64,000 nt of DNA from IMG/VR virus record IMGVR_UViG_3300026549_000070, one strand, 5' to 3'. Below the pieces are notes generated by a model, which worked only from the letters and a program-made list of their open reading frames with translations, was not told the origin of the DNA and searched no databases. This DNA comes from a virus. Taxonomy: Duplodnaviria; Heunggongvirae; Uroviricota; Caudoviricetes. Of this stretch, positions 859-63,909 are shown piece by piece. Made by a program: the position numbers and the translations under genes. Position 1 is the stretch's first letter. Every line of letters starts with the position of its first letter.

Positions 859-3800
859 TTGATGAATACAGAAGAATTTTACAATGGCTCACCTTATGAA
901 GTGGGCACTATGGATAACCTTGCAGAAACAAAGGTAAGCTATAATAACCTTGTAAAAGTTGTCCACGATGCTGCAGGCAGAAAAGGTTTAACTCTTTCTG
1001 AGTTTCTTAATTTGCAAAAATCTTCAGAAGAGTCTTCTGAGCTTGTTACATACCTTGATGAAAAAGGGTACTCTGTTCGCTCAATGGGCGAGGACGCAAA
1101 AATCTTTAATAATCAGATAAACACTCAAGCCGCTTTACAAACAATTCAAAACTTCTATGATATGTATATCTCTCCAACACAAGGAGACGCTCAATATCGT
1201 TTAGGAGAAGTTACAGGTCGCGCACTCCCAGGAACTGTAAATAATCAAACTGACGATCAAGGTCGTTTATTTACAAGATCTTTATATAACACAGTACTTA
1301 AATATAAAATTTGGAAAGTTGACCGTCTTGTAGATACTGAAGAATATTATTCTGTTCTTTGGTTCCCACCTTTTAAGCCAAACAGCGTTAAAGCTACTTC
1401 TTGGAAAGGCGCATATGTTTCTGACAACAGTGAAACAATTTCTCTTTCAATGGGAGAATATCTTTCACAAGCAAAAGCAAAGCGACAAGAAGAACTTGAT
1501 GAACTTAATGCAAAGCTGATTGAAGCTGGTGAAGAAGTTACACAAACAGAAGCAGATGATACACGCCTCGTTAAAAATCCATCAGCAACAAATGATAGCG
1601 CAAAATATTATGATACATTTGACTTAAACAAGTTTCTTGCAGCTCGTTCTTCATTTACATACCGTGCGCCTGGCTTCAAAGCAATCAATGATAACATTAA
1701 TATGATTCAGTGGCTTTTTGAAGGCTGCACAGGAATTGTATCAACATATCTTACAGAATGGGATATTTCATTATATCTTCAAGAAGGCCTTATATCTGAT
1801 TTTAATGGCACAATGCCAAATTACATTTTATTGACTCATCGTATGGATAAAGACAATCCTTCAGGATATACTGATGAACGGGCAGCTTCTTACGGTGTAG
1901 TAAACTGTGCTGTTTCAAAACTTAACTCAGATTATCATAAAACTTGGTATATCAATGCTTATCCATATTCGTCTTGGCATACTGCGTATCCTGACCCTTG
2001 GAAGATGGCAGGCTGGCTTGATAAGATTGAACAGAATGGCCAAATCGTTTATGTGCCAAACTGGTTTAAGTTTGGTCGTGAAGGCGTAAGCAACTACCTT
2101 GCTGGTAAAGATCTCGGTTATAAACCACGCCGTGACTGTATTAGTTCACGCTTGCTTTATCAAGATTTTGAAAATGCTGCTCTTTCAGGTTACACTGATT
2201 GGTCTTTTGATAAAAAGATTTGGAAAGCTCTTTACACTGGCGATGATGACGGCTTTACAGATATTGACTTAGTTTATTTATCAACATCTTGTGGTATGTT
2301 CAAAAAAGCTGACTTAATTGACCAAGTTGAAATGATTCTTTATGGCGTTTCTGCTGACGGTGTTCCTTATGATGGTTCAGAAGTCATAGGCGGTGATAAC
2401 GGCTCTGGTAACGGCAATATTACAAATGATGAAGAATATTCTTATTCTTCTGCTGAAGGTTCTGGCGGAAATAAGTACTGTCCAGGAAGTGTTTTCAAAG
2501 GTGCATTAACATTCTTAAATATGTTCAACACAAAAGATAGTAAGAAGAATGCTTCAATGTCACAAGCAGAAAGCCGTTTGCAAAGTGATAGCGGCAACAC
2601 TTATGGAGTAATGCAAGATTCACTTGGTATTACAAAACAGGCATCTACAGGTCAGCCAGCCACTTTAACAGAAGATGGTTACATTCTTGGAACTAAAAAA
2701 GCATTTACTGAAAACTCTATTGGCGTAGGTGTTCCTCAGTACAACCCAACATTATATGGTGGACCTCACGGATACTACCGTTCACCTGAGTCATATCAAT
2801 CTTACTATGAAGAAAACTCTGTTTACTTAAGAAATGTACCTCGTATTGATAAATGTCCTAATAGCTTCAGTCACGACTCTTGGGCAGGAATTACTTGGCC
2901 ATCACTTCCAAACTGGCAAGATAACTACTACTATAAAGGAAATGAAAAATGGACTTCAAACGTTGGCGCAGTTGCAAATGGTGAAAAGCAGTCATTTGAA
3001 CAATCTTGGTCTGCTGGTTTTGCTCGATTAAAGCAAGGTGTTCACTCTTACTCAATGCAAACTGCATACATCAGACGCCGTCACGATACTATCATTGAAG
3101 GTCACTTACATAGAAAACATCGTTGGTGGGCTGGCTGGAGAGGCTGGTACTCTTGGCGTTATTTTGGCTACGACGTTGGTTGGGACCAGCGTGCAAGTAA
3201 CGGTGAGTTGCTTAATCGCTATGGCAACTATTGGTGGGAGTGGCGTAAATCAACATTGTACAGCAATCGTTGGTGGTGGAATTCACTTTGGAATAATTGG
3301 GCATATTATGATGCTTGGCTAAACTATTACAACTTTTATTTCTCTTGGCAATATAGCTGGGGCTGGAAATGCGTATTGCATCGTTATGTACCTTGCACTT
3401 GGGCTTGGCATTATGAATGGTGCTATGCTGACTTCAAAAGATATGTTATTCATAATGGCTTCCACGATTATAAGTGGAAGATTGCTATGGTTCAGCACTA
3501 TAATGCAACTCTTGACCCACGGTCAAATGATAAGTTCCGTAACAGATGGGCTGCAACATTCTCAAAGATGTTTGGCTATTCAACACCTTATGAGAGAGCG
3601 TATCTTTCAGCATCAACAGAAGATTATGAATTATTTATTGACGACTCAGGTAAGCAGCCAGGAACACTGTTTGAAAAATACGATGACAAATATAAACAAG
3701 TAATTTCTTCTTATATGACAGTTAAGGAACATAATGTAATGGACTATTTAGTTGACTGGGGACGAGGCGTCGGTGCCCATAATAAACTTATGTTCTTGAC

Positions 3801-6438
3801 TCGTGGTCCTAAAGATCAACCTGACTGTCTGTTCCGTTGTGAAGTCTATCATAATATGAAGCCAATTTGGTATTGGTGCGAACATTCTAAAAAATATTCA
3901 TCACATAAAACTAAGTATTGGTTTGAAAAACATTGTGGATGGAAGCACTATCTTTCTGTAAGAATTGATACAACAGACAGATTTTATGCTGGTCTTTACA
4001 AGCCTGCATTTACAAACTATGGTTCAGACTATGGTAAGATACCAAGATCAAAAGCAATTCAGGATTCAACTGTTCCTGTAAATGGACAGATAAGTTCAGC
4101 TGTTGCAAAACACAGTTTCTTTGGCTCAGGTTTAGGTAACAACTGTTCTGAAACTCGTAAGTCACCTTATGATCTTATGGAGAATATCAGTGGTCGTCGT
4201 TTTCCTTACTACAATGTTAACAAGGACTCTGACGAAATGCATAATTCATTCAGTGGCATTCGTGGCAAAGGTATTCTTGGTGACATCCCAGGTCTTGACT
4301 TTGTTGCTGACGATTCTAATATTGAAAAGTTTAGTGATAAAACTCGTATTACTAAAGGCGATCCACTTAATACAGCATTTGGACAGCTACACTTTCCGTT
4401 CTGGAAGATTGCATCATTCACTAAAGGTAATGTTGCTCTTAACGGTAATACATACCGTGTAGCAGGCGGACGTATGAATTATGTTGAAGGCAGAGCCCCT
4501 GATTGGTGGAATAAAATGATTCTTAATATGAGTTTAAGAAACACATTCTACCGTGGTGATATGTCAGGTCCAAAAATTGCAACATTCTCATTAAAGAATT
4601 TTGCTATTGATGTAACAAGCCTTGACATAGGTATGGGTAAGCAAACTATTGAAGCAAGAAAATGCAAAGTTAGAAACAATGGCAATGAGTTCCTTATTAC
4701 AGCTGACAACATTCGTTCATATACAACTTATCAGCAGTTAGGCGGTGACGGAAGACTTCACGATTATGTGGATAAGTGTACCTTAAAGAATGCTTGGGTT
4801 GGCGCAAAATATTACTTCACGTCATATGATATTGCTCCAAGATTTATGTATAATCTTGTATCAACTCAAAATGGATTCTTATCGGGCGCAAAAGACTTGC
4901 TCTGTGGACATATTAAAGATTCAAAAGGCCGCGATACTGGTAAGTACATACTGTCTTTTGACTATATTCGTGACATTATGGTAGGTACTAATCGTTCAGC
5001 AGCTCTTGTTTCGCCTCGTTCATACTTTCTTGCAAATCCTGAAGGAAAGTTTAAAGATGAAGAAACTGGCGAAATTTATAATTGTGAAGATATGTATGGT
5101 TACAATCAGTTCTTAGTTTGGGCAAGAGAGTGGTTTGACAATGACTCACTGACCAACTTTAATAAACATAAAGAACTTGAGAACGCATTCAACTTAAGAA
5201 TAAGCACTCTTGCAAATATGAACAGTAAACTTGAAGTTTATAAAGATCTTGATATTAAAACAATGTCATATAATACAATGATTGCAAGTTGGCGTGATAT
5301 GAATGCATTCATTGACTTAAAGTATGACGAAGGTATTGAACAGTTCTTCCTTGCTTATTTGAATGTTTTGTATGAGTCAAGAAGATATTTTATCAATAAA
5401 AGATGTAATAAACAAGACGGAACATTGTGGGCTTGTCGTCATCTTGAGAAAATGATTCCTCAAATGGTTGCTTCAGCTGTTTCATCTGGTGCAGGTGTGT
5501 ATCCTGCTGAGTTTAGCAAATCAACAGGAAAAGAAAATGTCGCATTCTACGAAGTTCAGAATACACTCGAAAAGAAATCTGAAACTTTAAAGAAGATTGC
5601 AAACGGAGAATCTGCTGCACTTGAACCTGATATGATTAAGACTGTTTATGTAAAAGTAAAATATGCAACTGAAGCTGATTATATCAAATGTCAGGAAAAA
5701 CTCAAATCTGGTGAGCTATCTCCAAATGAAGAAACCATTATTAAAGTTCGTCCTTGGAATTATATTAAGAAAAGAGATGGCTCATATAAGAATATAAATG
5801 CAGGTGACACAATCAATACAGCAAAAGGTGAAATGTGGAATAATGCGGGTTGGGCAATCAAATATGGTAAAGAAAAATATATCATCAAGCCTGTAAACGG
5901 ACCTTATGGAATATTCTCAAAAGAAGTAAAAAATGAGTTCAAAACTCGCAAAAAATTGGAGCAAAATGATACATTAAGTCTCACAATACACGAGTATGAT
6001 ATGTACATAAGTCCTGTTTATTCTGATAAAAACTCACTTAAACCATTTGACATCAACTGGGATAATCTTGCTGCAAGCGAGTCAGGAATCGTATTCAACT
6101 TATTCGGCGGTACAGCAGCAGATAAGATTAGAGAACTTACACAAGCTGGTGTTACAGATCCTCAAGCATTACTTTGTGGTGCTAAACAGAGCACAGATTA
6201 TTGGAGAATTCCTGTAAGTGGAAAACTTCCAAAAGCAGAAGGATATAAATCCGACATTACACTTGAATTCTGCAATCAAACAGAAAGTGGACTTATATCA
6301 ACTATGCCATCTAAAAATCCTGCAGCTTTATCTGGCGCAGCTGCTTATGCAATGTGGCCAATCATCGAGGAACAAACTGATGTTATTCCAAACTCAGGAG
6401 ATTTTGCAATTTCATTAAAAGACTTTGGTAAAAACTAA
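859..6438 (+). CDS. Very large (1859 aa) virion structural protein, a putative tail fibre, baseplate or host-recognition protein, containing an unusual Trp-rich segment
   Basis: Uninterrupted 5.6-kb ORF with a GAGG RBS. Residues ~735-890 are extremely W/Y-rich (HRWWAGWRGWYSWRYFGYDVGW...NRWWWNSLWNNWAYYDAW). No enzymatic motifs were recognised. Confidence 0.5.
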   Translation: MMNTEEFYNGSPYEVGTMDNLAETKVSYNNLVKVVHDAAGRKGLTLSEFLNLQKSSEESSELVTYLDEKGYSVRSMGEDAKIFNNQINTQAALQTIQNFYDMYISPTQGDAQYRLGEVTGRALPGTVNNQTDDQGRLFTRSLYNTVLKYKIWKVDRLVDTEEYYSVLWFPPFKPNSVKATSWKGAYVSDNSETISLSMGEYLSQAKAKRQEELDELNAKLIEAGEEVTQTEADDTRLVKNPSATNDSAKYYDTFDLNKFLAARSSFTYRAPGFKAINDNINMIQWLFEGCTGIVSTYLTEWDISLYLQEGLISDFNGTMPNYILLTHRMDKDNPSGYTDERAASYGVVNCAVSKLNSDYHKTWYINAYPYSSWHTAYPDPWKMAGWLDKIEQNGQIVYVPNWFKFGREGVSNYLAGKDLGYKPRRDCISSRLLYQDFENAALSGYTDWSFDKKIWKALYTGDDDGFTDIDLVYLSTSCGMFKKADLIDQVEMILYGVSADGVPYDGSEVIGGDNGSGNGNITNDEEYSYSSAEGSGGNKYCPGSVFKGALTFLNMFNTKDSKKNASMSQAESRLQSDSGNTYGVMQDSLGITKQASTGQPATLTEDGYILGTKKAFTENSIGVGVPQYNPTLYGGPHGYYRSPESYQSYYEENSVYLRNVPRIDKCPNSFSHDSWAGITWPSLPNWQDNYYYKGNEKWTSNVGAVANGEKQSFEQSWSAGFARLKQGVHSYSMQTAYIRRRHDTIIEGHLHRKHRWWAGWRGWYSWRYFGYDVGWDQRASNGELLNRYGNYWWEWRKSTLYSNRWWWNSLWNNWAYYDAWLNYYNFYFSWQYSWGWKCVLHRYVPCTWAWHYEWCYADFKRYVIHNGFHDYKWKIAMVQHYNATLDPRSNDKFRNRWAATFSKMFGYSTPYERAYLSASTEDYELFIDDSGKQPGTLFEKYDDKYKQVISSYMTVKEHNVMDYLVDWGRGVGAHNKLMFLTRGPKDQPDCLFRCEVYHNMKPIWYWCEHSKKYSSHKTKYWFEKHCGWKHYLSVRIDTTDRFYAGLYKPAFTNYGSDYGKIPRSKAIQDSTVPVNGQISSAVAKHSFFGSGLGNNCSETRKSPYDLMENISGRRFPYYNVNKDSDEMHNSFSGIRGKGILGDIPGLDFVADDSNIEKFSDKTRITKGDPLNTAFGQLHFPFWKIASFTKGNVALNGNTYRVAGGRMNYVEGRAPDWWNKMILNMSLRNTFYRGDMSGPKIATFSLKNFAIDVTSLDIGMGKQTIEARKCKVRNNGNEFLITADNIRSYTTYQQLGGDGRLHDYVDKCTLKNAWVGAKYYFTSYDIAPRFMYNLVSTQNGFLSGAKDLLCGHIKDSKGRDTGKYILSFDYIRDIMVGTNRSAALVSPRSYFLANPEGKFKDEETGEIYNCEDMYGYNQFLVWAREWFDNDSLTNFNKHKELENAFNLRISTLANMNSKLEVYKDLDIKTMSYNTMIASWRDMNAFIDLKYDEGIEQFFLAYLNVLYESRRYFINKRCNKQDGTLWACRHLEKMIPQMVASAVSSGAGVYPAEFSKSTGKENVAFYEVQNTLEKKSETLKKIANGESAALEPDMIKTVYVKVKYATEADYIKCQEKLKSGELSPNEETIIKVRPWNYIKKRDGSYKNINAGDTINTAKGEMWNNAGWAIKYGKEKYIIKPVNGPYGIFSKEVKNEFKTRKKLEQNDTLSLTIHEYDMYISPVYSDKNSLKPFDINWDNLAASESGIVFNLFGGTAADKIRELTQAGVTDPQALLCGAKQSTDYWRIPVSGKLPKAEGYKSDITLEFCNQTESGLISTMPSKNPAALSGAAAYAMWPIIEEQTDVIPNSGDFAISLKDFGKN

Positions 6439-38741: not shown

Positions 38742-39198
38742 GTGTTTCCTTTGTTATTATATTATCAAAAGTAAAGATATCTTTCTTAATAAGATTGTAA
38801 GGCAACTTTTCCAACTCCTTTTTATGAATTGAAAAACCTTTATGATATAATTGTGACATTGATTCATCCCACTTAAAGATATACGCTCTTTTATTACCTC
38901 TACCGCAGTCAACACCTAAGATCACATAACACAAGACATTTTTTGCGTGTGAATATGATGCCAAATAGTCATTTTGCCACTCTCTTATATTTTTGAAATT
39001 AAATGCTGACATCTGCTTTAATACCTTAGCTTCCCAGCATACAAAATGAAGTTCATCATTTACTTTACGCATCCCAATCCCATCAAAACACCTTATAGAT
39101 GATTTTGCGCCATATTGAAATCCTGATTCATCTGGTATTTTATAGCCGTCAACTAATGAATGGACTACAATAGTACAAAATCTAGCTTCATTCCACAT
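38656..39198 (-). CDS. hypothetical protein (180 aa), possibly nuclease-like
   Basis: ORF only; no firm motif. Confidence 0.35.
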   Translation of the reverse strand: MWNEARFCTIVVHSLVDGYKIPDESGFQYGAKSSIRCFDGIGMRKVNDELHFVCWEAKVLKQMSAFNFKNIREWQNDYLASYSHAKNVLCYVILGVDCGRGNKRAYIFKWDESMSQLYHKGFSIHKKELEKLPYNLIKKDIFTFDNIITKETLVSIYGESIYDESNVSMSEVPKDLSKEV

Positions 39199-40396
39199 AC
39201 AATAAGTCCTCTCTTAAAATGTTTTTTGTTGACACAACATAATCAACAAATATTTTATAGTCTTTTGACCTCAATATTTTTATGTCGTTATTTTTCATAC
39301 ATTGATATTTTAATTTATATAGCTCGTCACACTCCGGAGACCTGTCCCAAGGATTTATAAAACTTTCGCCGTCAAAAAACATATCGCCTTTTAATTCATA
39401 AAATGTGTCACCTATTAAAAAGTCTGGAAAATATCTATGTTGAATCCCATTACATTCATATATAAAATAAGCTTCTGGTTGATATATAAAGTCAATATCA
39501 AAGTCTTCTAAAAATATGTAGAAGCACACCTCTGGATAAGAATCGAACATAATGTCATTATACACTAACTTTTTCTTTCTCTTTTTATTTATTATAGCCC
39601 ATTCTTCTGGAGTTCTTTTTTGAAGCGTTTCTCGTTGTTTAAGTTTTACACGCTCATTTTTAGCAGGATTCTCAAATCCGTAAGTTTCAATGAAATATTG
39701 CTTTCTGTGTTCAATAACGCTTGGGATTTTGAAATTATGGTCCACATTATATCTCGCTAAAAGAGCGTTTCTCCTTTTTTCAAAAATCTTTTTATCATAC
39801 TCACTATCAGATTCTCTTTTTGCGTTTATTGTTTGTCTGCTTTTATTTTTAATAACCTCTAAAAAATTAGGATCTTTACAATGCTCATAATAAGTTTGCT
39901 TTCTTTTTGCAATAACATCTTGTAAATATGATACATTTGTCACTCCATATTTTTCTAAAAGAGTGTTTTCTCTTGCTTCTTTCATACTGTTATATGCTTC
40001 ATCAATAGATCCATATTTTTTAGTCCAAGTCTCTCTTATTTTTTCTTTGACACTGCTGGCTTGAAATGAGCATTCACATCCATATTTTTCTATGCAAGTT
40101 TTAATACTCTTTTCTTTTACAACTTTTTTATAGTTGTCTAATGATCCATATTTTTCTATGCAAGTTTTAAGTCTCTTCTCATTTTTCACAGCTAAGTCAA
40201 CACTTTTTGCTGAAATCTTCATATTACAAGACTTACACACAAGGCTTTTGAAATTACCTAAAAGTCCCGTATAAGTTTGTCCACATACACTGCAAGTAAA
40301 ACTTACAGTCTGTCTTTGTGGGTAAGTTTGCTTTAACTTATCCACGTCATCAATAGATTTAATAAATATTGGTTCATCAGAAAACTTCTTTTTCAT
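39188..40396 (-). CDS. putative homing endonuclease with an N-terminal zinc finger, tandem ~30-aa xEKYGxxN repeats and a C-terminal PD-(D/E)xK-like nuclease motif
   Basis: CSVCGQ...CKSC. Repeats CIEKYGSLDN / CIEKYGCECS / TKKYGSIDE / LEKYGVTNV / IETYGFENP. C-terminal HRYFPDFLIGDTFYELKG. Confidence 0.4.
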   Translation of the reverse strand: MKKKFSDEPIFIKSIDDVDKLKQTYPQRQTVSFTCSVCGQTYTGLLGNFKSLVCKSCNMKISAKSVDLAVKNEKRLKTCIEKYGSLDNYKKVVKEKSIKTCIEKYGCECSFQASSVKEKIRETWTKKYGSIDEAYNSMKEARENTLLEKYGVTNVSYLQDVIAKRKQTYYEHCKDPNFLEVIKNKSRQTINAKRESDSEYDKKIFEKRRNALLARYNVDHNFKIPSVIEHRKQYFIETYGFENPAKNERVKLKQRETLQKRTPEEWAIINKKRKKKLVYNDIMFDSYPEVCFYIFLEDFDIDFIYQPEAYFIYECNGIQHRYFPDFLIGDTFYELKGDMFFDGESFINPWDRSPECDELYKLKYQCMKNNDIKILRSKDYKIFVDYVVSTKNILREDLLYVE

Positions 40397-42518: not shown

Positions 42519-42881
42519 ATGAAGGCATACAAACCTAATGAATGCGACTTCCTTATTCTCAATCTTTTGAATGAGTATGATAAGGAATCATTAATGAAGT
42601 CTCTTTTGCAGGATGCGAAAGAAAGACAGGAAACTTTTGGTGATGAGTTTGAAAACTGTGTTCAGTTTGCTCAAACTTTTTCAAATGCGGTTTTCACACA
42701 GACAGCTCGCTGCCTTGTAAATGAAAAACTTATAAAAGAGAAGGTTAACGAAGTTGGAGAATTTCCACAGTTTGTCAATGACTATGAATTGACAGCTGCA
42801 GGTATTGAACTTTGGGAAAATCTTAAACAGAAGTTTAAGGACGATGTTCAAAAGCCTGGGTGGACAAAATTCTATCGGTAA
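42519..42881 (+). CDS. hypothetical protein (120 aa)
   Basis: RBS atggaggttaggtaatg. Confidence 0.45.
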   Translation: MKAYKPNECDFLILNLLNEYDKESLMKSLLQDAKERQETFGDEFENCVQFAQTFSNAVFTQTARCLVNEKLIKEKVNEVGEFPQFVNDYELTAAGIELWENLKQKFKDDVQKPGWTKFYR

Positions 42882-42919
42882 TTCTTCAACAGCTGTTAAT
42901 ATAAAATTACAGTTTAATC

Positions 42920-43298
42920 GGGCGTGAGTAATGGAATCGATTGGCTGAATAGTTCTTTAACATCAGGTAAAGGTGCCGACCTTAATACGGAAAAGAATAA
43001 CTGCAACTAAACGTTCAGTTGTTGCTCGTGGTTCACGCGCAGCTTTCGCTCGCGCTGCCTAAGGCAACACCTAGTTGGACCCTTTGAGGACCAACTGCGA
43101 CTTTCACGACTCAGATAGTGGAATGTTCGTATCGCCCATCTGATAAGTTGAACAAGAGTTGGGTTGCTTGCTCAGTTCAATCGAAAACTGAAAGTAAATA
43201 TGGGTTATGACCGTCCCTACCGTCAATTCGGTTTTAAGCCTGTAAAAAGTGTTATTGGGCAGCAGAGCAAGATTTGGGTTCGACACCCAACACGTCCA
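42920..43298 (+). ncRNA. ssrA: candidate tmRNA (ssrA-like), ~379 nt
   Basis: The 5' end GGGCGUG-AGUAAU-GGAAUCGAUUGG parallels the tmRNA 5' consensus GGGGCUG-AUUCU-GGAUUCGACGGG. AAGGUGC follows, then AAUAACU-GCA (compare the E. coli AAUAGUC-GCA resume context). A 19-codon frame follows (GCA...GCU GCC UAA). The 3' end is a T-arm UUGGG-UUCGACA-CCCAA plus CACGUCC-A that pairs with the 5' end, including a G3:U70 wobble and A73 (Ala identity). Confidence 0.55.
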
Positions 43299-43523
43299 GA
43301 TCCGCTATAAGATGAGATTCGGTTTTGCGGAGCCGACGATTTGAAGTGGACTTATTGTGAGGTTTTATCCGGAGAAACAATTCTCAGAATAAGCTGCGTT
43401 CAAATAACTTTTAATATCGTTTACTAGTATAAAAATGGCTGGCGATATTAAAAGAAACCAATGAATTATAAAAGCCATTTGCTCAATGGATGAAATAGTA
43501 GTTGAAATTGAGCACAAACTTAC

Positions 43524-43638
43524 GGGGCTTGCGGGCACTAGGATTGAGTTGGTCGCATTAAAAAATGGTACTGCGCGGGTCCAACGGAATAGGGACGCTC
43601 GGAAACGAGAGAACTGGGTTCGACTCCCAGGTGCGGAA
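43524..43638 (+). ncRNA. tRNA-like or tmRNA-like structured RNA unit with a canonical T-arm (unresolved fold)
   Basis: Starts GGGGCUUGCGGGCACUAGGAUUGAGUUGG and ends with the T-arm CUGGG-UUCGACU-CCCAG. Confidence 0.3.
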
Positions 43639-44008
43639 GTTGGATATTCTTTGTTCACCGTCTAAAAAGAACAAAGTGGTGGAAGGTATGCTTGAGAAAT
43701 CGGGCATCCCCAAATGAACAAGAGCTTGTAGACAATCAACCTAGTATGCCTTATTGCTGCAGGTTTGATAGGAGAGCTCCACGCGGAAAGTTTCCTTCTA
43801 AGCAGTTGAAGGTTTAGGTTCCGCACATGTAGGACATTCAGAGTTTCTTCGGAGAGTCTGAAAAAACCTTCCACGTCATAAAATGTGGGTAACAACACTA
43901 AGACGCTAAATAAGAGATTGTTACAAAGCTACGGTTTGTCCGCTTCTAGGATTGAGAAACGCGGGTGGAATTGCGGGGAAGCATATCCCGTTGAATGAGG
44001 CAACTCAT

Positions 44009-44082
44009 ACTTCAATGGTGTAACTTGGTTAGCATACTGCCGGTGAATGGCGGCGATGTGGGTTCAAATCCTACTTGAAGTT
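44009..44082 (+). ncRNA. tRNA-like element (acceptor ACUUCAA/UUGAAGU, T-arm GUGGG-UUCAAAU-CCUAC); D and anticodon arms imperfect
   Basis: Acceptor complementarity plus a T-arm. Confidence 0.3.
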
Positions 44083-44243
44083 TTTAAGTTTTCAATTTCT
44101 TTCAAAAATTGATGGTGGAGGACTCACTTCGGTGCGTCCCTAGTTGAAAGCAGATTAGGTCGCAAGCTTTGGTAAGACCCTACAGTTTTCAACTTTTTGC
44201 GGAAATGGAATACTTGCGAATAAGCAATTTCCGCACATGTTAC

Positions 44244-44334
44244 GCGGGTCTGATAAAGGTAGGGGTTAACCGTGACCACTGCGGAGTGTACATATGCTTT
44301 GGTGCTATGGCAGGTTCGAATCCTGCGACCCGCA
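44244..44334 (+). ncRNA. 91-nt tRNA-like element (perfect 7-bp acceptor GCGGGUC/GACCCGC, T-arm GCAGG-UUCGAAU-CCUGC); interior does not fold as a canonical tRNA
   Basis: Perfect acceptor and T-arm; a long interior. Confidence 0.3.
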
Positions 44335-44351
44335 TTATAAATACGAGAATT

Positions 44352-44384
44352 AGGGAAATCTTTCATTGATTTCCCTATTTTTTT
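44352..44384 (+). terminator. rho-independent terminator closing the structured-RNA cluster
   Basis: agggaaatc-tttcattg-atttccct followed by attttttttt. Confidence 0.55.
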
Positions 44385-44424
44385 TTGAACTTTTAATGTA
44401 AGTCTTTTATATTATTTTTGTAAA
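44385..44424 (+). promoter_or_regulatory. class I conserved promoter
   Basis: ttgaacttttaatgtaagtcttttatattatttttg, then aaaggagcaaattatg. Confidence 0.55.
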
Positions 44425-44448
44425 TTAAAAAAATAAAAGGAGCAAATT

Positions 44449-61273: not shown

Positions 61274-61312
61274 GGGGTATTGGTGGAGTTGGCTACCACG
61301 CTAGCCTGTGAT
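61274..61312 (+). tRNA. 5' half of a tRNA-His-like gene (acceptor GGGGUAU, D-arm GUGG-AGUUGGCUA-CCAC, anticodon stem CUAGC and loop CUGUGAU, so anticodon GUG), interrupted after the anticodon loop
   Basis: Canonical 5' half by hand; the 3' anticodon strand GCUAG does not follow here but is found at 62008, downstream of the inserted ORF. Confidence 0.4.
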
Positions 61313-61328
61313 ATATACTAATTATTAT

Positions 61329-61988
61329 ATGAGAGAACAGAAAAACGCATATAACAATTGGAAATGTACAGTTTGCGGAAATGTTTTTAGAACAAGAGCT
61401 TTGCTTCAAACTCATAGAAAAGAGCAGCATAGTGAAATTAAGATGACGTCTAGTTTTACAGACTTAATTTCTTATGATTGTCCTTTTTGTGGAAGGCATA
61501 GAGCTAATGTTAGAAGATGCGCTAAATCAGCACATATTTTACATTGTTCTAAAAACCCAGACAGAGTTCCTAAAAAGGGGCATAAACTGTCTGATGAACA
61601 AAAAAAGCTTATTTCTGAAAAAATGAAAAAAGCACATCTAGAAGGACGTGCTGGGACATTTCCTTCTAGAAAAAATTGTGAGCACAGCTATCCAGAAAAA
61701 TGGCTAATTGGTGTTCTTAATAGAGAGCTTGGTTTTATAGAAGATAAAGATTATAAAACTGAGTATTTCTTTCATAAACAGTTTTTAGATTTTGCTTGGC
61801 CAGAAAGAAAATTATGTATTGAAATTGATGGTCAACAACACGAAAGATTTGTTGAAAGAAAATTAAATGATGCTAAAAAAGATGAAAATCTTAAAGCAGA
61901 AAATTGGAAACTTTTAAGGCTTAGGTGGTCTGATATTTGTAATAATACCCAAGAGTATATTCAGCAAATATTAAGTTTTCTAAAATAA
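61329..61988 (+). CDS. homing endonuclease-like protein (C2H2-type zinc fingers, a NUMOD-like motif, and a DUF559/Vsr-like endonuclease domain) inserted within the tRNA array
   Basis: WKCTVCGNVFRTRALLQTHRKEQH; KGHKLSDEQKKLISEKM; FLDFAWPERKLCIEIDGQQH...LLRLRW (the DUF559 signature). Confidence 0.6.
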   Translation: MREQKNAYNNWKCTVCGNVFRTRALLQTHRKEQHSEIKMTSSFTDLISYDCPFCGRHRANVRRCAKSAHILHCSKNPDRVPKKGHKLSDEQKKLISEKMKKAHLEGRAGTFPSRKNCEHSYPEKWLIGVLNRELGFIEDKDYKTEYFFHKQFLDFAWPERKLCIEIDGQQHERFVERKLNDAKKDENLKAENWKLLRLRWSDICNNTQEYIQQILSFLK

Positions 61989-62532: not shown

Positions 62533-62877
62533 CTACTTTCAACTTCATTCTAGACAGAAGTTGACAAAAGTACAAACCTTTGTGAGACGAGCTCGCATTT
62601 GTTGGCTTAATCGTAGTAAGCCTAGGCACCTGTAGCTCCTTAACCCCTGAGAGTTTCTCGCGCGAAACGAAACTCTTGGATAAGTGCGGACATTAAGATC
62701 AAGTATCGGGCGTTCCGTTTGAAAGGTGGTTTGTTTATTGGTCTATTAGTGAAGCAGCTAACACGCCTGCCTGTCACGCAGGAGATGACCGGGGCAGCAC
62801 CGGTATAGACCGTACATATCGCAAATAGCGCGATAAGTTCTTTGACATATATGATTTCTTTGTTTTGTTTTTTACAT
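62533..62877 (+). ncRNA. ~345-nt non-coding, GC-rich structured spacer between tRNA-Tyr and the next tRNA-like gene (function unknown)
   Basis: No plausible ORF on either strand; many local hairpins, e.g. gagagtttctcgcgcgaaacgaaactcttgg. Confidence 0.25.
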
Positions 62878-63099: not shown

Positions 63100-63909
63100 A
63101 TGTATATGAAAACTTATCAATGTGAGTTCTGTAATAGAACTATTGACTATACTAATATAGGTCGTCACCGAAAAACTTGTATTAAAAATCCCAATTCTGA
63201 GAAGTGTAAAGAACAAAACAAAGAAAGGACTTGTGAAAGGTGCAAATGCATTTATACATTAAGTGAAGCAGGAAGCACGAAAAGATTCTGTTCTAGGTCT
63301 TGTGCTAATGCTAGAGATCATTCTAGTGAGACTAAACTTAAAATGAGTGAATCTTTAAAAGTTTTTTACGAAGAACATCCTAAATGTAATGCAAAATCAA
63401 AATTACCCGAAAGTTTCTGCATTGTTTGTAATAAACAAATATCTAGAAAAAATAAGTCTGGATATTGTAAGGGATGCTTTCACTTAAGGCCAGTTTCATT
63501 GGAAACAAGAGAAAAGCTTTCTAGAGCAGGAAAGAAAAGCGCTCAAGTTCAAAAGAACAATAGACGTTCAAAAATAGAAGCGTTGTTCTTTGAAAAGATA
63601 AAAAAGATTTTTGATGATGCTGAGTCAAATAAAATCTTAGTTGACGGCTGGGACACAGATGTATTTCTCCCGACGCAACAAATTGCTATATTTTGGAATG
63701 GCCCGTGCCATTACTATCCAATATATGGTCAAAAAAGTTTAAATCAAACTCAAAATAGAGACAGAATTAAAAAGTCTTTGTTTGAGAAAGCAGGATATAA
63801 AGTTTATATTGTAAAAGATGTAGATGAGGCGTATCCGAAAGAAATTCGGAAAAACAGAGATAAAAGAACAGATGTCCAATTAGACTTGTTTTTAGAATTT
63901 CTAGGGTGA
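63100..63909 (+). CDS. homing endonuclease-like protein (multiple Cys zinc-finger repeats plus a DUF559/Vsr-like endonuclease domain)
   Basis: CEFCNR...CIKN, CERCKC, FCIVCNK...CKGC. The C-terminal region aligns with the DUF559 domain of the 61329 protein. Confidence 0.55.
   Translation: MYMKTYQCEFCNRTIDYTNIGRHRKTCIKNPNSEKCKEQNKERTCERCKCIYTLSEAGSTKRFCSRSCANARDHSSETKLKMSESLKVFYEEHPKCNAKSKLPESFCIVCNKQISRKNKSGYCKGCFHLRPVSLETREKLSRAGKKSAQVQKNNRRSKIEALFFEKIKKIFDDAESNKILVDGWDTDVFLPTQQIAIFWNGPCHYYPIYGQKSLNQTQNRDRIKKSLFEKAGYKVYIVKDVDEAYPKEIRKNRDKRTDVQLDLFLEFLG

Follow-up and report, generated by a model that had tools for sequence, protein, structure and literature searches.

A tmRNA gene with a conserved basic tag in an uncultivated giant phage distantly related to Bacillus phage G

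Background

Positions 42920-43298 (plus strand) of the virus record IMGVR_UViG_3300026549_000070 raise a question in two parts: is this segment a working gene for transfer-messenger RNA (tmRNA, ssrA), and what would its tag peptide, which ends in Ala-Arg-Ala-Ala (ARAA), mean for the proteins that receive it? The whole 64-kb stretch of DNA that was analysed is called the window here; judging by its gene matches, it is DNA of an uncultivated giant phage, a distant relative of Bacillus phage G. An initial annotation had proposed a phage-encoded tmRNA that rescues stalled ribosomes without marking the products for proteolysis, or with altered protease targeting, and had called it an unusual host-manipulation device.

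Identification of the tmRNA gene

The segment 42920-43298 (+) is very probably a functional tmRNA gene of the standard one-piece type, 379 nucleotides (nt) long to the discriminator base, as indicated by Rfam family RF00023, by ARAGORN run with -ps and by covariation among homologues. Direct reading of the segment recovered every sequence feature listed in the initial annotation, and the G3:U70 pair and A73 are not only present but invariant in 10/10 homologues. The two program checks proposed there gave a divided result, negative at standard settings but positive otherwise. In Rfam E-value mode (positions 42700-43500), RF00023 matched over its full length (model positions 1-374) at 42920-43301 with 40.2 bits and E = 1.7e-14, the gathering cut-off being 47 bits; with the threshold lowered to 95%, ARAGORN called a tmRNA at exactly 42920-43298 with the identical tag.

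Homologues were collected by two routes, through a neighbouring protein and with a 23-nt probe that covers leader sequence and the first part of the tag, and 10 distinct full-length tmRNAs and two partial ones (12 copies) were obtained. The neighbouring protein (120 aa) is identical on contigs from at least eight independent samples, and seven contigs were retrieved. A 160-kb ENA contig, ERZ27252065 k141_365900, is 99.98% identical to the window across 20 kb, and a 259-kb IMG/VR contig, UViG_3300021255_004000 (L121/L122), is about 91% identical to it. RF00023 scores were 59 bits for L121 and 52.5 bits for L172, both of which pass the cut-off, and 40.4 bits for L173, which falls below it; at default settings ARAGORN found a tmRNA with a matching reading frame in L122, L172 and L176. 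A scan of viral contigs for the 5'-end pattern gave one true relative among 43 matches. A permissive scan for the T-arm/acceptor pattern returned mostly unrelated transfer RNAs (tRNAs) and tmRNAs, and its output was used solely as a sample of tag diversity. No match to the tmRNA region was found by blastn in 50,697 GenBank phage records, and none to the 23-nt probe in 185,579 representative bacterial and archaeal genomes, so that no donor or host was identified by the probe.

Covariation was scored for 82 proposed pairs (acceptor, T arm, helix H2, both stems of pseudoknots PK1 and PK2, helix H5 and the helices of the PK3/PK4 region) in the 10-sequence alignment, with 3' partners slid by 1-3 columns and 500 shuffles as controls. 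Paired cells amounted to 96.6%, against 30-46% in the slid controls. Both sides had changed in 34 pairs; the slid controls gave 3-10 such pairs and the shuffles 10 on average, and the observed values were reached by 0/500 shuffles. The acceptor stem, T arm, H2, both stems of PK1 and of PK2, and H5 are all supported. The acceptor and T-arm pairing holds in the 10 homologues and PK1 precedes the tag frame, as the initial annotation had expected of a true tmRNA. Between phages that are about 89-91% identical in the flanks, the tmRNA body is 97-98% identical; in L172 and L176 it is only 62-69% identical to the window, and the helices are all kept by compensatory changes in lineages down to 62% identity. 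The gene is selectively maintained. Because relatives pass the detection cut-offs and the covariation lies far beyond both controls, its identity as a tmRNA gene is settled.

Several observations weigh against the reading as a functional tmRNA gene. ARAGORN at default settings did not call a tmRNA in the window, and Rfam at the gathering threshold reported only tRNAs there, RF00023 falling below its cut-off. The D-loop analogue reads GGAAUCGA, a single base away from the Rfam consensus GGAUUCGA; in relatives it is GGUAUUCGA or GGUUUCGA. The conserved D-loop analogue of tmRNA contacts SmpB, and no SmpB was found in the 64-kb window by phmmer with approximate query sequences. The terminal CCA is not encoded after A73, where the next bases are GAU, and L172 alone among the homologues encodes it. 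In the PK3/PK4 region, a candidate PK4 stem GGG/CCC is 83% paired and lacks covariation, and a second PK3 stem proposed by eye (CUGA) was rejected, being broken in L121. The leader and the first eight tag codons are invariant at the nucleotide level, and a constraint on the RNA, instead of selection on the peptide, could account for this 5' part of the tag frame.

The score shortfall is located in the window's version of the tRNA-like domain. When both halves of the L121 domain were swapped in (the first 11-12 nt and the 3' end from GAGCAAGA), ARAGORN called the gene at default settings; chimeras with mismatched domain halves were rejected by the program. A permuted two-piece tmRNA (RF04321) was considered and set aside: its match was partial and weak (22.7 bits, E = 0.017) and fell in the shared tag region, and the gene order is the standard one.

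Structure of the RNA

All parts lie on the plus strand. The acceptor stem is formed by GGGCGUG (42920-42926) and CACGUCC (43291-43297), with G3 in the G3:U70 wobble, and is followed by the invariant discriminator base A73 (43298); it is 100% paired in the 10 sequences, pair 5:68 occurring as G:C, C:G and U:A. The D-loop analogue AGUAAUGGAAUCGA (42927-42940) corresponds to RF00023 positions 8-21 in an alignment of high posterior probability. The 5' strand of H2 (42941-42968) pairs with its 3' strand (43238-43270), is 97-100% paired and includes six double-changed pairs. The T arm UUGGG-UUCGACA-CCCAA (43274-43290) covaries among homologues in 5/5 stem pairs.

Pseudoknot PK1 (42971-42990) takes in part of the AAGGUGC block (42970-42976) noted in the initial annotation. 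Its stem 1 is AGGU (42971-42974) with ACCU (42979-42982) and its stem 2 is CCG (42976-42978) with CGG (42988-42990); both are 100% paired in the 10 sequences, with double changes at columns 53:64, 58:75 (C:G, G:C, U:A) and 60:73. It is followed by the A-rich single-stranded leader AAAAGAAUAACU (42991-43002), whose alignment to the RF00023 consensus AAAAAAUAAuU ahead of GCa has a high posterior probability, and which places AAUAACU directly 5' of the resume codon GCA at 43003. Downstream of the tag frame, helix H5 (AGUUGGACC / GGACCAACU, 43073-43096) is supported in the 10-sequence covariation and is replaced in L172 by GUGAAAAC / GUUUUCAC. Pseudoknot PK2 (43102-43143) consists of UUUCAC/GUGGAA and UCAGAU/AUCUGA and is 100% paired, with seven double-changed pairs. 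The PK3/PK4 region (43147-43237) holds a hairpin GUUGAAC/GUUCAAU with an inner stem and a PK4-like GACCG/CGGUU; its supported helices are 94% paired, with double changes in eight pairs. Upstream, a possible -10 element TATAAAAT (42900-42907) lies 13-20 nt before the mature 5' end. The 20 nt upstream of the tmRNA are identical in the 91%-identical L121, and a consensus promoter scan did not flag TATAAAAT at 42900-42907.

Sequence and conservation of the tag

The tag frame (43003-43062) has 19 codons from the resume GCA and encodes ATKRSVVARGSRAAFARAA before the stop UAA (43060-43062). Both direct reading and the ARAGORN -ps frame bear out the resume codon, the peptide and the stop given in the initial annotation, and its ARAA ending likewise stands, the terminal FAR[AV]A being conserved in relatives. 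The frame is open from the same GCA in 12/12 copies. The tags of the clade form a family, ATKRSV[VF]A...[AV]FAR[AV]A(A), in four variants: ATKRSVVARGSRAAFARAA (the window type), one ending in FARVA (L173 and L183), ATKRSVVAHSNAVFARAA (L172) and ATKRSVFARGSRAVFARAAA (L176). tmRNA tags typically end A-L-A-A, a feature that is typical of the family and does not define it. The window tag ends A-R-A-A (A-R-V-A and R-A-A-A in variants), so that Arg stands in for the antepenultimate Leu before an unchanged terminal Ala-Ala. Its net charge is about +4.8 with an isoelectric point (pI) of 12, and the charge of the E. coli tag is -2.2. A strongly basic tag ending in ARAA and conserved across a clade is unusual. 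The family ATKRSV[VF]A...FAR[AV]A was seen in no other viral contig sampled, nor outside the clade with the 23-nt probe.

No part of the RNA is better conserved than the tag region. In L172 and L176 the first eight tag codons are nucleotide-identical to the window and the FAR[AV]A ending is kept. Synonymous changes occur in the frame (GGT/GGC, GCA/GCT, GCC/GCT, TTC/TTT), and point substitutions that change the amino acid are conservative only (V to F, A to V); the other differences are RGSR to HSN in L172 and one extra Ala in L176. The synonymous changes and the restriction to conservative substitutions suggest that selection acts on the tag peptide.

Predicted function and fate of tagged proteins

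By established tmRNA biology, the transcript, if expressed, would be trimmed at its 5' and 3' ends by tRNA-processing enzymes, and CCA would be added post-transcriptionally by a nucleotidyltransferase because the gene does not encode it. The host alanyl-tRNA synthetase would charge the RNA with alanine by way of G3:U70 and A73. Together with SmpB, presumably that of the host because none is encoded in the window, the charged tmRNA would enter ribosomes stalled on broken or stop-less mRNAs; translation would resume at GCA 43003, add (A)ATKRSVVARGSRAAFARAA and terminate at the UAA, and the ribosome would be freed. The phage would thereby gain extra ribosome-rescue capacity during infection, beside its own tRNAs and RNA ligase, a capacity that may be relevant when phage or host nucleases cut mRNAs and tRNAs. 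Judging by those tRNAs and the ligase, the phage puts much into sustaining translation.

Since the Ala-Ala carboxy-terminus is kept, the tag is probably still a C-terminal degradation signal, with altered specificity or affinity. For E. coli ClpXP, recognition depends mainly on the last two alanines and the alpha-carboxylate, substitution of which raises the Michaelis constant (KM), and mutating the antepenultimate Leu of the tag raises KM only modestly (PMC7652416). ClpX also recognises a class of basic C-terminal degrons, C-motif 2, an example being MuA (...QNRRKKAI) (PMC12723719). The constraint on the tag peptide is stronger than that on the rest of the RNA, which argues that something reads the tag and that it is not inert. 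SspB, which the initial annotation had named beside ClpXP as a reader of the usual ending, is a proteobacterial adaptor, and the present data gave no indication of a proteobacterial host. Precedents are also at hand: of about 25 distinct ARAGORN tags from viral contigs, a biased IMG/VR sample, fewer than half end in LAA, and one ends in KAA, so that a basic antepenultimate residue is found there too. Given these five points, the step from RAA in place of LAA to rescue without proteolytic marking is not upheld, the Ala-Ala-COO- being retained, basic degrons being read by ClpX and the tag being conserved. The description as an unusual host-manipulation device is therefore overstated, phage tmRNAs and non-LAA tags being already known, yet it is not refuted.

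What survives of that proposal is that the basic ARAA tag is not a degron for host ClpXP and that the rescued products escape degradation or are sent elsewhere, which we regard as unlikely, though not negligibly so. It draws on the Arg in place of the usual antepenultimate Leu, on a charge and pI far from those of the E. coli tag and on the conservation of this basic character across the clade, but it has to be set against the retention of the dominant ClpX contacts and the modest antepenultimate effect on KM (PMC7652416), and against the acceptance of MuA-type basic degrons by ClpX (PMC12723719). For retargeting in particular, phage G is suggestive, since it encodes adjacent ClpP-like gp257 and ClpX-like gp258 (187784-189744; L187 37785-39745) along with its own tmRNA with a non-LAA tag; no ClpX or ClpP homologue was found among the window open reading frames (ORFs) scanned. 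The presence of these two proteins in phage G keeps open the idea, by analogy, that giant phages of its lineage use an unfoldase of their own for the tags that they encode. In a related and similarly doubtful scenario, the basic tag would be a signal dedicated to the phage, for another reader or for sparing, perhaps alongside a conflict with a homing endonuclease at the tRNA-like domain. Such a reader may be a ClpX-like unfoldase encoded by the phage, of the type that phage G has, or ClpX itself working in a mode open to basic C-termini. Confidence in any one specific fate for tagged proteins is low.

Variability of the tRNA-like domain and alternative explanations

Among the six closest sequences, 39% of the alignment columns covering the T arm and the 3' strand of the acceptor are variable, against 0-4% in the body; the T arm and acceptor are thus about 10 times more variable than the body among near-identical phages, and each change is compensatory. 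L179 and L181 carry an insertion of about 730 nt, placed a few bases past the discriminator base (L179:1536-2262; window region 43274-43318). It encodes a GIY-YIG/NUMOD3 homing-endonuclease-like ORF (NUMOD3, 40.5 bits; SegE_GIY-YIG, 22.6 bits, just below the cut-off). Co-conversion, or escape from cleavage at the insertion site, is a plausible cause of the variability.

Three further explanations of the gene were weighed. Mycobacteriophage DS6A is reported to have a tmRNA reduced to the tRNA-like domain (TLD-only), and such molecules are reported to be inhibitory (PMC4131195). On this precedent the window RNA might be an inhibitor or decoy that titrates host SmpB or other tRNA-binding factors and so disables trans-translation, and with no SmpB gene in the window the phage RNA must indeed compete for host SmpB. 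A pure decoy, however, needs no mRNA-like domain, PK1, resume context, frame or stop, and these are the best-conserved part of the RNA, which makes this explanation very unlikely.

A host-captured gene drifting without function, as a decaying passenger, would fit the sub-threshold result in both standard detectors and the CCA that is not encoded. It is strongly disfavoured, to the point of being scarcely credible, by a tmRNA body that is more conserved than the flanking protein genes, by the upkeep of all helices through compensatory changes down to 62% identity and by a tag frame intact in 12/12 copies; recent capture is further opposed by the failure of the 23-nt probe to match any of the 185,579 representative bacterial and archaeal genomes. 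Least likely of all is an integration-site mimic serving as an attachment site for recombination with host ssrA, for although the 3' ends of tmRNA genes are classic integration sites (PMC12595487) and the 3' end of the window gene is a recombination-prone junction, the gene is complete with a covarying 5' half and is not a 3' fragment, no integrase was seen near it, the variable junction is explained by the homing-endonuclease gene inserted there in relatives, and the 23-nt leader/tag probe matched none of the representative genomes.

Genome context

Read as a functional gene of the phage, the tmRNA gene lies inside a 1.57-kb stretch without called genes (42882-44448) and adjoins a tRNA. That it is phage-encoded, as the initial annotation had held, is borne out by the phage helicase, head protease, DnaB, RNA ligase and 10 tRNAs of the window. 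PHROG and Pfam matches comprise a DNA helicase, a head maturation protease, a DnaB-type helicase, homing endonucleases, an Rnl1-type RNA ligase, ThyX, ThyA, a dCMP deaminase and an AAA_33 kinase. Nine of the 10 tRNA genes were called by ARAGORN; a tRNA at 62740-62812 was seen by Rfam (44.8 bits) without an ARAGORN call. Among GenBank phages, the window helicase is closest to that of Bacillus phage G (497 kb), with 45% amino-acid identity. Judging by the sample labels alone, the samples may have come from ruminant gut.

Homing-endonuclease-like genes also occur elsewhere in the window. The segment 38847-40533, which holds a 402-aa ORF (39188-40396, minus strand), has no aligned counterpart in the 91%-identical L121. 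The ORF matches the PHROG category 'homing endonuclease' and Pfam DUF7487, and the segment is consistent with a mobile endonuclease gene. Endonuclease-like ORFs at 61308-61988 (DUF559) and 63100-63909 (NUMOD3) lie amid tRNAs.

Downstream non-coding region and tRNA-like elements

Besides the tmRNA and one tRNA, the stretch 42882-44448 includes long blocks without any change between lineages that are only about 75% identical in the flanks. Rfam in E-value mode gave no family match to the conserved blocks of the downstream non-coding region beyond the tRNA. An RNAalifold structure for 43628-44008 was 94.6% paired, with 17 double-changed pairs against 1-6 in slid controls. This region, found in this phage clade only, is a candidate new structured RNA, and its covariation is suggestive only because the structure was derived from the same sequences and the test is partly circular.

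A cloverleaf at about 43571-43636 has an acceptor, a D arm, a 4-bp 'anticodon' stem under a GAAA tetraloop in place of an anticodon loop, and a T arm CUGGG-UUCGACU-CCCAG; it was called by neither ARAGORN nor Rfam. L121 keeps this fold through compensatory changes in the acceptor and tetraloop stems, and the element could be a processing signal or a decoy. A second tRNA-like element (44244-44334, 91 nt) has a 7-bp acceptor GCGGGUC/GACCCGC and a T arm GCAGG-UUCGAAU-CCUGC, the T stem being different yet paired in L121 (CCCCG/CGGGG). It was not called by ARAGORN, and its sole Rfam match was to tRNA-Sec (20 bits). On its 3' side is a terminator-like hairpin with a T-run (44351-44377). The two uncalled cloverleaves and this hairpin suggest that several RNAs share one transcription unit, with tRNA-like processing signals between them.

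The tRNA called Ser(UGA) (44009-44082) is only 74 nt long and lacks a long variable arm; its anticodon loop, GGUGAAU, lacks U33, and for its homologue in L122 (L122:321-396) ARAGORN gives a 4-base anticodon, gtga. The motif CTAGGATTGAG occurs at 43539 and 43947, about 30-60 nt before each tRNA or tRNA-like element, and TTCCGCACATGT occurs twice in the non-coding stretch (43820 and 44229). A clustering of RNA genes was also seen in an unrelated IMGVR_UViG viral contig (L085), where a GOLLD RNA (1904-2318; 296.6 bits) lies in the same tRNA cluster as a tmRNA (3572-3907) with the tag GNTYANAEYAVAA.

Comparison with known tmRNAs

With bacterial ssrA (RF00023) the window gene shares the 7-bp acceptor, G3:U70, A73, a T arm without an anticodon arm, a long H2, PK1 before an A-rich leader and GCA, a short frame ending in Ala-Ala, H5, PK2 and a length of about 380 nt. 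It differs in its score (40.2 bits against the 47-bit cut-off), in having GGAAUCGA for GGAUUCGA, in a basic tag of 19 codons with an antepenultimate Arg where most have Leu or Val, and in being phage-encoded with no SmpB gene found in the window. The MuA C-motif 2 offers a resemblance only, in that basic residues precede a C-terminus of small hydrophobic ones, and is not a tmRNA tag.

Among phages, Bacillus phage G and the cluster C mycobacteriophages are listed as tmRNA carriers in the tmRNA Website paper (PMC4131195), a survey of huge phages reports tmRNAs and SmpB (PMC7162821), and phage genomes rich in tRNA and translation genes carry tmRNA (PMC7162821, PMC4131195, PMC1475703). The surveys of huge phages and of cluster C mycobacteriophages relied on ARAGORN, which at default misses the window copy. 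Routine annotation under-counts phage tmRNAs, as the window copy was missed and its 91%-identical sibling was caught.

Phage G is the nearest cultured relative by helicase. Its tmRNA (412060-412368 of NC_023719) lies in a tRNA cluster and has the ARAGORN tag AKLNITNNELQVA. The two giant phages have in common a tmRNA among tRNA genes, G3:U70, a tag that does not end in LAA (QVA in phage G), and blocks of DnaC/DnaB and of kinase/RNA-ligase genes in the same order. The phage G tmRNA is shorter (309 against 379 nt) and stands in another genomic neighbourhood, and its tag is unrelated to that of the window and near neutral (charge -0.2 against +4.8). No nucleotide similarity between the two genes was found by blastn, and phage G was matched neither by an approximate B. 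subtilis ssrA query nor by the RNA ligase of the window; the alignment-based nhmmer profile covered only the first 250 kb of phage G, outside which its tmRNA gene lies. Near its tmRNA/tRNA cluster phage G has a TROVE-domain (Ro-like) RNA-binding protein (L192 7415-9046), and it also encodes two tRNA nucleotidyltransferases and a peptidyl-tRNA hydrolase.

Set beside these systems, the window and its relatives add a well-supported giant-phage tmRNA lineage, represented by 10 distinct sequences in which most helices covary, and their alignment could improve tmRNA covariance models for viral sequences. The conserved basic tag provides a test case between a boost to rescue alone and an altered fate of the tagged proteins. 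Phage tmRNAs with non-standard tags were known before, and what is new here is a further example of them, not a new type of device.

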